The notes beneath the pieces are model-generated. The model was not told the DNA's origin. It was given only the letters and a program-made list of their open reading frames with translations, and did not search any database. From Octopus vulgaris (lineage: Eukaryota), in the NCBI GenBank assembly GCA_951406725.2, contig OX597823.1:86428001-86492000 (forward strand): a stretch of DNA of 64,000 bases, written 5' to 3'. Positions 1,591 through 63,184 of the stretch are shown here, one piece after another (positions within the stretch are counted from its first letter, which is position 1; the number at the start of each line of letters is the position of its first letter). A program made the position numbers and the translations under genes.

Positions 1591-1651
<61 letters not shown>

Positions 1652-1654
<3 letters not shown>

Positions 1655-2024
1655 CCAATAAAAATGGTAAATAATTTTTCTGTGGTTTTTCATATAACCA
1701 ACAATTATTTACCGGTAAATTTCGGTATGTAAATATGACAAATTCATCGTCAGGAACTTTGTAAGGTTCAGTATATAGTAAAACTAATAAAAAGGGCTAG
1801 CAACAGGCTGCTTCGCCGCATACCGAAGGAATTAGAAATGGCAGTCAAAGACTGTTTTTTCCATTTTCTTTAAGTGGAGATTCCATTTTGTGTATGTGAA
1901 CCGCAGGGTCCGTCGTTTTTGGAATCTCCACTTACAGAAAATGGCAAAAACAGTCTTTGACTGCTATTTCTAATTCCTTCGGTATGCGGCGAAGCAGCCT
2001 GTTGCTAGCCCTTTTTATTAGTTT

Positions 2025-2033
<9 letters not shown>
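1652..2033. mobile_element. Insertion between two (TA)n tracts with 114-bp inverted arms (1772-1885 / 1920-2033) and a degenerate outward-facing HHR (1702-1760, minus)
   Basis: The arms are near-perfect reverse complements. The minus strand has CTGACGA-TG...CC-GAA-ATTTACCGGTAAAT-A (14-nt palindromic helix III). Helices I and II are degraded. Confidence 0.7.
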
Positions 2034-2815: not shown

Positions 2816-4010
2816 CAAGGACTGGAACTTGCGGTGGAAATCATACATTTTCAGTACTTGTTTCATCAAATTAGGAATGGTGAAAGAGAAAGTCATAGTC
2901 AACGACCGCAGGATTTGAACCTAGAATCATAATGAAATGCCGCAGGACGCTTTACCCGTCTCATTACCGATTCGGCTAATGTATTGCCTTCTATTAGTCA
3001 TATATAATCTATAAATAAATATACACGATTCTTTATTAAGTTATTAATTTTCGATTTATTTCTAAATCGGAGTAAAATACAAAACTGATAAATGCAGTAA
3101 TTATTTAATTAGTAAATTAGTTAATTTAGTTAATTAATTATTTTGTTTAATCTGTTAGCTCAACCAATCCTTTTTACTAAACGTACGTAGATTTTCCATT
3201 TTTACATTTAATAATTCACAAAGAATAGGACTATTATTCCAACTACCATAATCATAATTACATCTGCCTCTATAGTAGCTGAAGTTTTGTTTCTTTTGAA
3301 ATCATTTCCAACACCATTGTTATGATGTTAAATGACTTTATGTACAGACGATAAATATTGACCATACATCCTTTTCATAGCAGGAAATCACATATTCAAG
3401 CACGTGTCTTCGTGATGATTTCTCTATACAATGGCTTGCGATTATGTGTGAAACTTTACGTGCGATTTTCAGAAAATAACATTTTTTTTCCTCCGATATT
3501 GGAATGACCCTAAGAAACAGCGACCACACCCACGAAACAGAAAGAACGTGAAGTATTACAAAGGAAAACAAAAGAGATTTGATGCAAAGAAGAAAGTAAG
3601 TTATGATGTATACTAACATTGCAAAATGTAAAATCTATTATGCTTATGAAAAGCAAAATATCCTAGCAATCGTGTTAACGTGCTGTCAAGTGAATATTGA
3701 ATATTTCTTTAAATGAGTCTAGAAATATATGGCTAAATGTAAGTATAAAAGTTTATCAATAATATAAATAATACACCAAAATATGAGAACTTATATGTGA
3801 TACCAACATTTCAAATAGTAGTTGTCAGATATCTGAAGCGAGTGTTATATAAATAGACATAGTGAGTATTATATATTATATTTTTGTGAGCATTCATCCA
3901 GAAATATAATCTGATAAAAGGCGTAATAAATAATAAACAATAAATAATAAATAATACATGGAAACTTGATCAAATTACATGAATGTTAATAATATTTGTG
4001 TATTTATTTT

Positions 4011-5052
4011 AAGGCGGTGAGCTGTCAGAAACGTTAGCACGCCGGGCGAAATGCTTAGTGGTATTTCGTCTGCTGCTACGTTCTGAGTTCAAATTCCGCC
4101 GAGGTCCACTTTGCCTTTCATTCTTTCGGGGTCGATTAAATAAGCACCAGTTACGCTCTGGGATCGATATATAATCGACTAAATCCGTTTGTCTGTCCTT
4201 GTTTGTCCTCTCTGTATTTAGCCCCTTGTGGGTAGTAAAGAAGTGGGTATTTCGTCTGCCGTTACGTTCTGAGTTCAAATTCCACCGAGGTCGACTTTGA
4301 CTTTCATCCTTTCGGGGTCGATTAAGTAAGTACCAGTTACGCACTGGGGTCGATATAATCGACTTAATCCGCTTGTCTGTCCTTTTTTGTTGTTTCTATA
4401 TTTAGCCCCTTGTGGGCAATATAGAAATAAGAAACGTTAGCACGCCGGACGAAATACTTATAAGGGGGCGAGCTGGCAGAAACGTTAGCACGCCGGGTGA
4501 AATGCGTAGCCGTATTTCGTCTGATGTTACGTTCTGAGTTCAAATTCCACCGAGGTCGACTTTGCCTTTCATCCTTTCTGGGTCGATTAAATAAGTACCA
4601 ATTACGTACTGGGGTCGATATAATCGACTTAATCCGTTTGTCTGTCCTTATTTGTCCTCTCTGTGTTTGGCCCTTTGTGGCTAATAAAGAAACAGGCATT
4701 TCATCTGCCGTTATGTTCTGAGTTCAAATTTCACCGCGGTCGACTTTGCCTTTCATCCTTTCGGGGTCGATTAAATAAGTACCAATTACCTACTTGGGTC
4801 GATATAATCGACTTAATCCATTTGTCTGTCCTTGTTTGTCCCTTCTGTGTTTAGCCCCTTGTGGGTAGTAAAGAAATAGATATTTCGTCTGCCGTTACAT
4901 TCTGAGTTCAAATTCTGCCGAGGTCGACTTTGCCTTTCATCTTTTCGTGGTCGATTAAATAACTACCAGTTACGCACTGGGGCTGATGTAATCGATTTAA
5001 TTTCTTTTTTCTCCCATCTGTGTTTAGTCCCCTGTGGGCTATAAGGAAATAA
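4011..5052 (+). mobile_element. tRNA-derived SINE family A, head-to-tail multimer of about 5 units
   Basis: A-box-like GAGCTGGCAGAAACGTTAG and B box GAGTTCAAATTCC; core GCCTTTCATCCTTTCGGGGTCGATTAAATAAGTACCAG repeats about every 185-190 bp. Confidence 0.88.
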
Positions 5053-14689: not shown

Positions 14690-15248
14690 TCACATCGACC
14701 CCAGTACGGAACTGGTACTTAATTTATCGACCCCGAAAGGATGAAAGGCAAAGTTAACTTTTACTAAATTTTAACTCATAACGTAAAGACAAACGAAATA
14801 CCGCCAAGCATTTTTCCCGGCTTGCTAACGTTTCTTATTTTTTATTGCCTACATGGGGCTAAACATAGAGAGGACAAACAAAGACAGACAAAGGGATTAA
14901 GTCGATTACATCGACCCTAGAGCCTAACTGGTACTTAATTTATCGATCCTAAAAGGATGAAAGGCAAAGATGACCTCGGCGCAATTTGAACTCAGAACGT
15001 AACGGCAGACGAAATACCTATTTCTTTACTACCCACACGGTGCTGAACACAGAGGGGACAAACAAGGACAGACAAACGGATTAAGTCGATTATATCGACA
15101 CCTGTGCGTAACTTGTACTTAATTTATCGACCCCGAAATGATGAAAGGCAAAGTCGACCTCGGCGGAATTTGCACTCAGAACGTAGCGGCAGACGAAATA
15201 CCACTAAGCATTTCGTTCAACGTGCTAATATTTCTACCAGCTCGCCAC
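14690..15248 (-). mobile_element. SINE family A multimer
   Basis: Three reverse-complement units of the same consensus. Confidence 0.85.
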
Positions 15249-36405: not shown

Positions 36406-36975
36406 AAATAGAATTTGTGGCTTATGTCGCTTCTGACTAGTGTTTGAAGTTTGCCCTGTTTGTTATAAGGAATTCATGGCTCAATGTAGCATATGTTTTA
36501 AATAGGATCTGATTGGTTTAGAAATGTCACATGACTGATTTTAGAAATTTGTGTAGGTTCCCCGCTACGTCCGTATGTGAGCGTCAAGTGACAATGTTTG
36601 CGTCGTAAAGTTGAGGCTGACACTGTTGACTGCACAAGTTCAAACAATCAATGCTCTGAATGTTTTCTGTGAAGTGTTTGCAGAGAATGGACACATGATT
36701 AAGTTTATAACCGTGTGTACGTTTCCCGCTACGTCCGTGCGTTAGTGTAACATGACAGTATATTTTGCGACGAAAAAGAGGGCTGACATGGCTGAGCGAA
36801 CATATTTAGTTATAATCAAGACAGACCAAATTTAATCTGTCTCGTTGGAGAGTGGAGAGGAATCGTTTGTATGTAGTCCAATGGTTAAAATTTAGATTGT
36901 TATCTGTGTAGTTTCCTCATGATAAGCAGCAGAATGAATTTTGTGTGTGAATAGTTATTTGTGTATGTACCTCTG

Positions 36976-38030
36976 TTAAAGTTTGCTAAGTCTTGGATTG
37001 TACTTTTGTATGAAAGTATTTTCTTTATTCATCCATGCTTCATCTGTGGTATTCGCTGAACATAGGTAGAGTGGAAAGACCTGAAATTTAGGAGACTTAT
37101 TTTTTGCACATATTTCTAAGTGATGACCCAATGAGATCTGTCTTGTACTGGGTTCTCGTATTTGTTGTTGGTGACTGGTCAGTCTATTTTTTAGAGTCTG
37201 GCCTATGTAATCTTCATTACATCCTTGACATTTGACATCGTATATTAAACTCCTTGAAGAACATGTAAAGTGATTTTTTACAGTAAAAGTCTATCCTGAT
37301 TTGAATTTTTATGATGTGCCTTCAATAAGGTTGATGCACGTCCCGCAATTGGGGCGGCCATATTTTTTTACTGTTGGTAAAGGAATTTTGGAAGCAAATG
37401 TGAGGAAGTTTTTGAGATACTTTGATTGTCTTTTACTTTTGCTTATTTTGCTTATTTTGCTTTTTTCATTCGTGGGTCTTGTTTTAGTAGTGGAATATTC
37501 GGGTGGATAATATTGTAAACCTCTGTGTTTCTTGGGTTGTGTTTTGTAATAGATGGTAGATTATTGGATGTATCTGGAGCGTTTTTCGTTTTCCGTAGTT
37601 CTTCGATATTTATTGCCTTGGCAAGTTCTATTCTGTTGTCTATTAGAATTAATTAGACCTTTTTTATTAGTTCCTGGAGTCTTTTATCATGAGTTTCAGG
37701 GTTTGAGACAATGTTGCAGATTCTTCTTGCTAGTTTGAAGGGGACATTATTCTCCGTTTGGGATGGCATGAGGGGAATAGTAAGTATTGTTTAGAATCTG
37801 TTTGTAGTGAGTATCTGTTTCAATGATTGTATCTCTTTTGGTGATTAATATATCCAAAAATTGTAGTTGAGTTTTACAGTATTCCACGGTAAAGTTAATA
37901 TTATTTTTATGCTTTCGATCAAATTTTTGAAATCTATAAGTTGCTCAAATCTAATCATAGGATTAGGAAGTCATCTAAGTAACGTTTCCAGTTTTCTGGT
38001 AGATATTTGTGGAAGTTCAAGCCATATATT
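36976..38030 (-). pseudogene. PLE reverse transcriptase C-terminus plus GIY-YIG endonuclease, disrupted
   Basis: YLDD and LIY...YIG motifs are readable; in-frame stops and frameshifts are present. Confidence 0.88.
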
Positions 38031-38646
38031 AATTTATATTGTTCATGTATCTGGACGTCCATGTATGCCATGACAAGATTGGCGTACGTCGGGGCAACTT
38101 TGGTCTGTAAAAATGTCTATTTAATGAGTGCTGCTGTTTATATCTTTCCTGATGAGATTGAGGCATAGCTGACCATAATTCTTCCTGTCGGATGTAATGG
38201 GAATGCATCCATCGAAACATATGTGGACGATATGAAGATATAAATGTTTTAATAACATCCTGAGCATTTGTCTCCTTTTTCAATTTTCCTAGATATATAA
38301 ATATATATGTGTGTGTCTGTGTGTGTGTTCATAAAAAAAGGAGTAAAAAAGTCAACAGGAAAAATCAACAACGCACGGACGTGTACATGCAAAATATTAA
38401 TATGAGCGAGAATAGAACAGGTGTGAAACATTGTTTCTATCAAAACATACTATTATGATGTCATAATAAAATGCTAACCTAACACTTCGGTTACACTCTT
38501 TACATTATTCAGATGTATATCACAGCAAACGAAAATCGAAAGACAATGTATGTCTAATACTTTGTTGGCATTTGGTGATACACAGAGCTATAAGGAATGT
38601 TAAATATTAACTGTTATGCTATCTCTTTGCAAATGAAATTCATGTA

Positions 38647-52698: not shown

Positions 52699-53116
52699 TC
52701 TTATTTCTTTATTGCCCACAAGGGGCTAAACACAGAGGGGACAAACAAGGACAGACAAAGGTATTAAGTCGATTACATTGACCCAGTGCGTAACTGGTGC
52801 TTAATTTATCGACCCCGAAAGGATGAAAGGCAAAGTCGACCTCGGCGGAATTTGAACTCTGAACGTAGCGGTAGACGAAATACCTATTTCTTTATTACCC
52901 ACAAGGGGCTAAACATAGAGGGGACAAACATGGATAGACATAGGTATTAAGTCGATCATATCGACCCCAGTGCTTAACTGGTACTTAATTTATCGACCCC
53001 GAAAGGATGAAAGGCAAAGTCGACCTCGGCGGAATTTGAACTCACAACGTAATGGCAGCCGAAATACCGCTAAGCATTTCGCCCGACGTGCTAACGATTC
53101 TGCTAGCTCGCCGCCT
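52699..53116 (-). mobile_element. SINE family A dimer
   Basis: Two reverse-complement units. Confidence 0.85.
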
Positions 53117-61260: not shown

Positions 61261-61618
61261 AACAAACAAACAAACACACACACACATGATTTATGAAAGG
61301 CAAAGGAGAGAGAAGACGGATTTGAACTCAGAGTTGCAGATGACAAAAACCAATACGCTACAGTAGTATTCCAGCAGAAGTTCGTAAGACCGAACCAGTT
61401 CGTCAGAGAATAATATATCTTTTATATTCTACTCGTTTCGCTCATTGGACTGCATCCATGATGGGGCCACGCTTGAAGAGTTTTGTCGAACAAAGTGAAA
61501 CCTAAGTTAAGGGACATGACCATACTAAGCCTGTTATCATGCTGTGAATACGGGCAAACGAATACACACACACATACACACACACATGTATACATGGCTA
61601 TGTATAAATATATGTATA

Positions 61619-61676
<58 letters not shown>

Positions 61677-61813
61677 TGTATGTATGTATAACATCACAAT
61701 CAAGGAACGGCCATAATAGGCCATTCACCCACTAGAAATAACAGCCAAAGCTTCAACCGCAAAATAACATTAATTCCGTAAACCAGGAGAAAATTAAAAA
61801 CATTTACCCTGTA

Positions 61814-61920
61814 ATTTCTTATACGATGCACCGTTTCATCTACTGTTTAATGGTAAACTAACCTGATTAAATTAAATCAAGCCAATCTTCCATAGGCCCT
61901 TAGATTCCTCAGTAAGAAAT
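61814..61920 (-). ncRNA. Type I hammerhead ribozyme, inverted copy of 62672-62778
   Basis: Reverse complement of the plus-strand HHR, with all core nucleotides intact. Confidence 0.88.
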
Positions 61921-62671
61921 AGCCAGAACGGAACAGATATTTTCACGAGGCATTTCTGTCCCTGCCTCGGCAATATCTGACCTAAAATTTTCAAATCATC
62001 GCACTCGCGCCAAATTTATCGGCAGCAAATAAATATAAGCCGCCGATTCCATTACGGAATCAACCAGAAAATTCATAATTAATCAATATAGGGTGGCAAA
62101 AAAAAAAATTTTGTAGAATTTTTTTGCCACCAGCGGCCTAGTGGGAAAAAATTAAATAGTCATAGACCATTTATAAGTTCAACATCACAATCAAGGAGGG
62201 CCTATGGAAGATTGGCTTGATTTAATTTAATCAGGTTAGTTTACCATTAAACAGTAGATGAAACGGTGCATCGTATAAGAAATTACAGGGTAAATGTTTT
62301 TTAATTTTCTCCTGGTTTACGGAATTAATGTTATTTTGTGGTTGAAGCTTTGGCTGTTATTTCTAGTGGGTGAATGGCCTATTATGGCCGTTCCTTGATT
62401 GTGATGTTGAACTTATAAATGGTCTATGACTATTTAATTTTTTCCCACTAGGCCGCTGGTGGCAAAAAAATTCTACAAAATTTTTTTTTTTTTTGCCACC
62501 CTATATTGATTAATTATGAATTTTCTGGTTGATTCCGTAATGGAATCGGCGGCTTATATTTATTTGCTGCCGATAAATTTGGCGCGAGTGCGATGATTTG
62601 AAAATTTTAGGTCAGATATTGCCGAGGCAGGGACAGAAATGCCTCGTGAAAATATCTGTTCCGTTCTGGCT

Positions 62672-62778
62672 ATTTCTTACTGAGGAATCTAAGGGCCTAT
62701 GGAAGATTGGCTTGATTTAATTTAATCAGGTTAGTTTACCATTAAACAGTAGATGAAACGGTGCATCGTATAAGAAAT
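62672..62778 (+). ncRNA. Type I hammerhead ribozyme with canonical core and long helix II
   Basis: Helix I ATTTCTTA/TAAGAAAT (8 bp); core CTGAGGA at 62680; helix II ATCTA...TAGAT with internal extension ATTGGCTTGATT/AATCAGGTTAGT; GAAA at 62755; helix III ACGGTGCATCGT (self-complementary with G-U); GUA cleavage triplet ending at 62770. Confidence 0.9.
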
Positions 62779-63015
62779 TACAGGGTAAATGTTTTTTAAT
62801 TTTCTCCTGGTTTACGGAATTAATGTTATTTTGCGGTTGAAGCTTTGGCTGTTATTTCTAGTGGGTGAATGGCCTATTATGGCCGTTCCTTGATTGTGAT
62901 GTTGAACTTATAAATGGTCTATGACTATTTAATTTTTTCCCACTAGGCCGCTGGTGGCAAAAAATTCTACAAAATTTTTTTTTTGCCACCCTATATTGAT
63001 TAATTATGTATGTAT

Positions 63016-63048
<33 letters not shown>

Positions 63049-63139
63049 CATACATATATATATATATATACATATATATTATACATTTATATAATCAATT
63101 CAAAAAGACATACACACATAATATACGGTTTGTATGCAC

Positions 63140-63184
<45 letters not shown>

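Follow-up and report, generated by a model that had tools for sequence, protein, structure and literature searches.

A hammerhead retrozyme family of Octopus vulgaris with two fixed 3' ends in its insertions

In the genome of Octopus vulgaris (assembly GCA_951406725.2, contig OX597823.1, positions 86,428,001 to 86,492,000 of the forward strand; the whole of this 64,000-nt stretch is called the window), a unit of about 490 nt folds into hairpins around a hammerhead ribozyme. The locus raises the question what kind of element this is, how it came to be inserted, and whether selection acts on its RNA, as the original prediction held, which had described a branched, viroid-like monomer at 62276..62770. 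These coordinates correspond precisely to the interval between two successive cleavage positions.

The locus consists of an inverted and a direct arm (Table 1), which meet head-to-head at 62197 and together form a near-perfect 500-bp inverted repeat, with (TA)n at both outer ends. The direct arm terminates at a fixed end B (unit position about 242) and the inverted arm at a fixed end A (unit position about 130). The hammerhead of the truncated upstream unit lacks CUGANGA; with one complete ribozyme per arm, the window locus cannot release a unit by two cuts in cis, which counts against the explanation preferred below, and it does not have the two consecutive complete ribozymes by which vertebrate retrozymes are called active (bioRxiv 10.64898/2026.07.22.740005). 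The longest ATG frame on the unit circle has 34 codons, i.e., the unit does not code for protein, and the arrays are made of whole units, with no LTR organisation.

Table 1. Features of the retrozyme locus and of its hammerhead (positions in the window)
Feature	Position	Strand	Remarks
Full repeat unit, cleavage position to next	62276..62770	+	495 nt; other copies 485-497
Complete type I hammerhead	62672..62778	+	from sequence, covariation and core conservation; cut predicted
Stem I	62672-79/62771-78	+	
CUGAGGA core	62680-86	+	
Catalytic stem II, ATCTA/TAGAT	62687-62691 with 62750-62754	+	5 bp
Stem II insertion	62692..62749	+	58 nt; internal loop and 12-bp G-U-rich hairpin
GAAA	62755-58	+	
Stem III	62758-61/62766-69	+	3-4 pairs; palindromic UGCA loop
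Cleavage triplet GUA	62768-62770	+	predicted cut after 62770
Direct arm	62197..63011	+	79-nt 5'-truncated unit, full unit, partial unit
Inverted arm	61690..62197	-	unit positions 117-495, then 1-133
Complete hammerhead of inverted arm	61814..61920	-	core CTGAGGA at 61912-61906
17-nt motif upstream of end A	62349..62365	+	candidate RT signal (putative function)
"Tail" between end A and end B	62406..62517	+	about 112 nt; contains two of the originally predicted hairpins
(TA)n target, left side	61599..61689	.	strand unassigned
(TA)n target, right side	63005..63182	.	strand unassigned

The ribozyme was identified by its motif together with covariation, and an intact type I hammerhead was present in 111/119 full units. 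Conservation was assessed in 276 copies from 75 loci: the CTGANGA core was intact in 268, with all four bases occurring at position N7, GAAA was intact in 273, and the cut triplet ended in UA or UC in 273. Loop III was palindromic in 265 of these copies, TGCA and TATA alternating; TACA was found in 7 copies, all from a single locus. Comparison of the window with Rfam gave no match at the gathering threshold, and the 41 weak matches within 61600-63100 included no hammerhead, the best ones being (TA)n against microRNA models; this, too, counts against the preferred explanation. The octopus ribozyme is of interest as a hammerhead which Rfam misses, probably on account of its long stem II insertion.

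Two values count against the explanation preferred below: stem III is predicted to be weak, with a pairing probability of about 0.1, and stem I has a probability of about 0.1 in the circular fold of the window copy. In that circular fold (62755-62778) stems I and III are predicted to be mostly unformed, whereas stem I forms in the local linear context; the segment competing with the ribozyme stems differs among subfamilies. A weak stem III with a palindromic tetraloop, suggesting cleavage as a dimer, is also known from the satellite-2 hammerheads of newt and axolotl (PMC7229834), although the octopus stem III differs from theirs in having three to four pairs.

Selection on RNA structure had originally been deduced from the abundance of G-U pairs. 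For the ribozyme, such selection is well supported by covariation; the G-U count proved unsuitable as its basis, and elsewhere the signal is modest. In 16 hand-picked representatives, 98.5% of cells in the ribozyme domain were paired and 6/29 pairs had changed on both sides, which was as high in 0/500 shuffles; the two-sided changes correspond to about four independent events, since three changes in stem I derive from one subfamily. The outer pair of stem II occurs genome-wide as A-U (1052), G-C (1014), G-U (18) and A-C (1), with 0 reversed-pattern controls, and its G-U form has spread as a subfamily of its own. In the nine other helices covariation was slight: 2/80 pairs had changed on both sides, in one sequence each, 25/500 shuffles did as well, and a slid control was equal. 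Three of the hairpins carry A-C or other mismatches across whole subfamilies. Variant types in the ten named helices comprised 13 changes from Watson-Crick to G-U, 8 from G-U to Watson-Crick, 8 to A-C, 12 to other mismatches and 2 compensatory ones, and at two more pairs A-C is more frequent than any other state. In the ribozyme with its extension, selection on the sense-strand RNA is clear; in the remaining helices it is weakly supported. The evident constraint on the ribozyme means that cutting is of importance at one stage or another.

The genome contains about 2,000 ribozyme copies (2,085 by four exact patterns), in tandem arrays dispersed over many chromosomes. A DNA search of the 2.8-Gb genome yielded 251 matches from 40 of 1275 candidates, and full units among the best matches were 96-99% alike. 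Units from 65 sequences fell into 11 groups at 97.5% identity, reaching down to 85% identity with the window copy. The sequence was also found in sequencing runs of three organisms. No listed run was recorded as RNA; in two runs presumed to be RNA the sequence is present only as contigs, which span all 30 bins and were not taken as evidence of expression, and the junction of a circle is identical to that of a tandem, hence the two do not differ in sequence. Within 62515-63011 of the window, a guessed-RNA run showed 20 A>G and 12 T>C places, whereas DNA sequencing of that organism gave 11 and 5, respectively; at the low depth available, this is at most a hint of A-to-I editing of fold-back transcripts.

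The inverted arm and the fixed ends had no part in the original prediction. Inverted arrays were found at 27/40 best-hit loci. The 3' ends of the arrays lie at the two unit positions of ends A and B, each followed by (TA)n; the 5' ends vary. As the arrays are dispersed and each has its own 5' truncation points, they represent separate insertions. All 47 two-ended loci among the 74 examined combined one A with one B (47/47; 0 A+A, 0 B+B); the remaining 27 had B only (15), A only (10) or neither (2). The selection of 20 of the 74 loci for several matches biases the share of inverted loci, not the pairing of A with B. The rule of one A and one B holds across subfamilies. Both outer ends are internal to the unit and without poly(A), the arms are of unequal and variable length, and the inner junctions vary as well; the (TA)n flanks would mask any target-site duplication, and none was readable. 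At three loci (L037, L153, L159) only some twelve bases of end B remain of the inverted arm, as though synthesis from the second priming had come to a halt nearly immediately. The arms usually cross the cleavage position; the template was therefore not a cut linear monomer, and should have been either a circle or an uncut multimer.

The anatomy, the copy number, the covariation of the ribozyme and the one-A-one-B rule are the observations which lead us to regard the element, with considerable confidence, as a non-autonomous, non-coding non-LTR retrozyme moved by a Penelope-like RT-endonuclease. From them we infer the following course of events, including the identity of the enzyme. Tandem arrays would be transcribed on the ribozyme strand, and the type I hammerheads, probably paired through the palindromic loop III, would excise RNA of unit length, which a host ligase may circularise, by analogy with animal retrozymes (PMC7229834). 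A Penelope-like RT-endonuclease would cut (TA)n DNA, and reverse transcription would start from two fixed positions within the RNA, each corresponding to one of the two cut target strands. The two cDNAs would run toward the 5' side of the RNA, past the cleavage position, and would then be joined head-to-head, so that the outward-facing 3' ends are that of site A on the one side and that of site B on the other.

A more specific version, which we put forward only tentatively, is that of one Penelope-type RT dimer on a single circular RNA, with the two sites about 112 nt apart, each primed from one cut strand of a (TA)n target, and both subunits rolling round the circle. If true, this would explain the multi-unit arms on both sides, the occurrence of one A and one B end at all two-ended loci, and the presence of the same haplotype in both arms, and several ribozyme repeat families would share one short motif that recruits the enzyme. 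The same haplotype is indeed carried by both arms, and divergence per site was 0.0057 between opposite arms and 0.0060 between units of the same arm, compared with a between-locus mean of 0.016. At several loci (e.g., L046, L050, L058, L062, L069, L167) variants that are rare at other loci occur in every covering unit of both arms; variants common to all units of both arms fit a circle. Two results count against the preferred reading: the nearest unit at another locus differs by 0.005, compared with 0.0066 for units within a locus, and the rare variants of long arrays show no regular spacing. A periodic pattern, such as a dimeric circle should produce, was not observed. This irregular recurrence agrees with local expansion subsequent to insertion, or with a multimeric template of mixed units, rather than with a single circle.

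These last results are what would be expected if the same element, with a Penelope-type enzyme, used an uncut linear multimeric RNA as template, its arrays being lengthened by unequal crossing-over and circles playing no part in its spread; this is a serious possibility, if a somewhat doubtful one. Shared variants in long arrays are non-periodic, distances within a locus and to the nearest other locus are alike, and the anole element inserts in vitro without ribozyme cleavage (PMC11167929). Locus-rare variants in every covering unit of both arms are difficult to reconcile with a linear multimer, as is the clear constraint on the ribozyme, by which cutting should matter somewhere. The family is young and numerous and intact candidate enzymes exist, thus the question of a circular or a linear template could be tested directly.

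The inverted structure by itself could have other origins. Twin priming of the L1 type also produces 5' inversions, yet its second site varies. An origin driven by LINEs in this manner, or else a detached Penelope-like terminal repeat amplified only locally as a satellite, appears unlikely, since both outer ends are fixed, internal to the unit and without poly(A), and since dispersed arrays with truncation points of their own are separate insertions. Such readings would be compatible with the fact that an autonomous partner was not found among the GIY-YIG loci examined, and local amplification of terminal repeats has been proposed (bioRxiv 10.64898/2026.07.22.740005).

The ends of the octopus element match those of Penelope-like elements, and the rule of one A and one B ties the retrozyme to the two-site initiation described in vitro: in Poseidon of the anole, the tail is the sequence between two internal starts of reverse transcription (PMC11167929). 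In Penelope-like elements, partial tandems are accompanied by a 5' copy in inverted orientation and by a tail of 30-40 bp on one side (PMC8557442, PMC3846280). The octopus family shares with Poseidon (PMC11167929), Naiad/Neptune (PMC8557442) and Adineta Penelope (PMC3846280) the partial tandems, the head-to-head inverted, 5'-truncated copy, a tail confined to one end, a target that is AT-rich or consists of (TA)n, and a hammerhead upstream of two starts, which in the octopus would be the two fixed 3' ends. It differs from them in that it has no reading frame and that both arms can hold several whole units; its tail of about 112 nt, compared with 30-40 nt (PMC8557442), counts against the preferred explanation. 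The pairing of ends suggests a single event in which each site serves one of the target strands. For vertebrate retrozymes, descent from Penelope-like elements has been argued from co-occurrence and, in Xenopus, homology of terminal repeats (bioRxiv 10.64898/2026.07.22.740005). The octopus unit lies within their size range of 51-972 bp and shares the proposed partnership; here the evidence is an insertion signature, whereas homology to a terminal repeat was not found among 50 loci. The family thus provides a footprint of the enzyme which moves retrozymes, in addition to that earlier support, and the one-A-one-B rule and the 112-nt tail are the most valuable part of the present results.

A partner enzyme was sought in a survey of GIY-YIG sequences; scoring covered 150 of the 6136 candidates, and roughly one third of the scored ones were retrieved. 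A young family (L101-L109, e.g., L101:2245-4587) has intact 781-aa frames with RT and GIY-YIG domains, which we take to be Neptune-like from the cysteine linker. It terminates in (TA)n at two positions separated by about 40 nt, has a further frame upstream that reaches 479 aa and gives no Pfam match, and carries a degenerate hammerhead-like motif in its terminal repeat. Blastn of the unit against 50 GIY-YIG loci gave only an inserted 53-nt fragment, and the 17-nt motif had no exact match in the 3' regions of 19 GIY-YIG loci; both results count against the preferred explanation. As it shows no blastn homology to the unit, the 781-aa element can be regarded as no more than a candidate. Several Penelope-like elements have a GCATTTTC-like stretch near their first end; its resemblance to the shared motif is weak, and it was not counted as evidence. 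A GIY-YIG exon was noted at L088:1360-1650; presumably it is a look-alike from a cellular nuclease of the SLX1 type and not from a transposon. In the window itself, 36967-38116 (- strand) is occupied by the decayed remnant of a Penelope-like element, which has about 35% identity with the 781-aa protein.

Other repeats carry parts of the same signature. A second hammerhead family with a 563-nt unit (L171-L199, e.g., L197:938-1500, - strand; L208) also forms inverted arrays in (TA)n, with two fixed ends about 93 nt apart; the 17-nt motif stands upstream of its first end, and three short motifs are common to it and the ~490-nt family, in the same order. More repeats inserted in (TA)n have the 17-nt motif 40-60 nt before an end (window 1650-2030 and 50922; L110, L190, L200). 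The repeat at window 1650-2030 is a head-to-head inverted pair. Repeats of the retrozyme kind often land in one another's (TA)n flanks; at L160:9358-9901, a copy of another subfamily lies about 300 bases from an array of 16 units. In L208 a GIY-YIG fragment is preceded, at a distance of 2 kb, by a ribozyme; this was rejected as a link between the two, since the ribozyme proved to be a separate insertion of the second repeat family in (TA)n, and pieces of repeat families beside elements in L078, L110 and L112 likewise look like separate (TA)n insertions.

The octopus element belongs to a known class, the non-LTR retrozymes, and both retrozymes and their stable fold were known before. Animal members have units of 170-400 nt and a stable, self-paired predicted fold (Cervera and de la Pena 2020, PMC7229834). 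Like these, the octopus family consists of short tandem repeats of low GC with one type I hammerhead per unit, complete with core and three stems, with no protein and no LTR, in thousands of copies with a stable self-paired predicted fold. It differs by its longer unit of about 490 nt, its 58-nt stem II insertion and its (TA)n target, at which no duplication is readable; the available description of animal non-LTR retrozymes (PMC7229834) does not mention arrays that are inverted and have a pair of fixed ends. In the literature no description of the octopus family or of inverted, two-ended retrozyme arrays was found, although supplementary lists could include them, and the available text of a 2026 annotation of octopus repeats (PMC13282606) makes no mention of hammerhead, retrozyme or ribozyme.

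The fold remains to be considered. All 20 arms of the hairpins named in the original prediction (20/20) were found at their places on the + strand of 62276-62770. In the window copy, the ten helices comprise 78 Watson-Crick pairs, 10 G-U and 0 A-C, and the 12-bp helix indeed contains four G-U pairs. This helix, taken for helix II, is a distal extension of the catalytic stem II. Folding energy was better than that of dinucleotide shuffles on both strands, with linear z values of -6.42 (+) and -5.17 (-) and 0/100 shuffles as good, and circular z values of -6.50 (+) and -5.33 (-) with 150 shuffles. The description as folding almost entirely into hairpins was not borne out, since 64% of bases were paired compared with 63% in shuffles, nor was an excess of G-U, which made up 16.5% of + strand pairs and 20.2% of those in shuffles; both measures were dropped as structural evidence, as shuffles equal or exceed them. 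The + strand is rich in G+T (G108 C70 T189 A128), and most of the difference between the folding energies of the strands (-147 vs -103 kcal/mol) is thus due to composition.

The helix GATTCC/GGAATC is unlikely to form (circular pairing probability 0.05), being displaced by a longer, unlisted helix of 62317-62328 with 62529-62540, whose probability is mostly 0.9-0.95; two of the named helices overlap by 2 nt. The predicted strand asymmetry was retained in direction, the sense strand being favoured in 6/6 copies of other subfamilies, but in size it reached only 0.1-2.0 z units (30 shuffles each), and a 40-shuffle run of the window copy gave the opposite order, -5.55 (sense) vs -7.36. A strand-neutral stem finder was abandoned, since it left too few mismatches for a test (G-T 2, A-C 1). 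The highlighted fold is ordinary for retrozymes and partly an effect of composition; the probable role of the hairpins beyond the ribozyme is to make the RNA more stable and to display the two start sites, while which bases pair in detail is only loosely conserved.

Hammerhead viroids (Avsunviroidae) have a size range and a branched predicted fold similar to those of the octopus unit. The term "viroid-like" fits loosely only: the stable self-paired fold is one already known for animal retrozymes, and the octopus element is encoded in the genome, with a type I ribozyme of single polarity, whereas viroids have ribozymes in both polarities and no DNA form. A viroid-like replicon copied from RNA to RNA, with the genomic arrays as by-products, would agree with the size, the stable branched fold and the want of any frame above 34 codons, and such replication was raised as possible for mussel retrozymes (PMC7229834). 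It is nevertheless very improbable, considering that the unit contains no antisense ribozyme core (CTGANGA), that about 2,000 genomic copies suffice as templates, and that the paired fraction does not exceed that of shuffles. Least credible of all is the view that the folds are palindromes at the DNA level, belonging to a DNA element of the foldback or MITE-like type, with RNA structure incidental: the near-perfect inverted repeat, the better-than-shuffle folding of both strands and the variants outside the ribozyme (13 types to G-U, 8 to A-C, A-C prevailing at two more pairs) would agree with it, but it is largely refuted by the covariation of the ribozyme, by the ratio of 18 G-U to 1 A-C in stem II with a subfamily founded on the G-U form, by the presence of a hammerhead core on one strand only, and by the unequal, variable arms and variable inner junctions, which are unlike terminal inverted repeats.

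Two further observations concern the surroundings of the element. An isolated CTGACGA lies just beyond it, at window position 61406 (- strand). A dispersed repeat at 4010-5001, 14836-15202 and 52702-53068 of the window consists of tandem 184-bp units and is presumably SINE-like.
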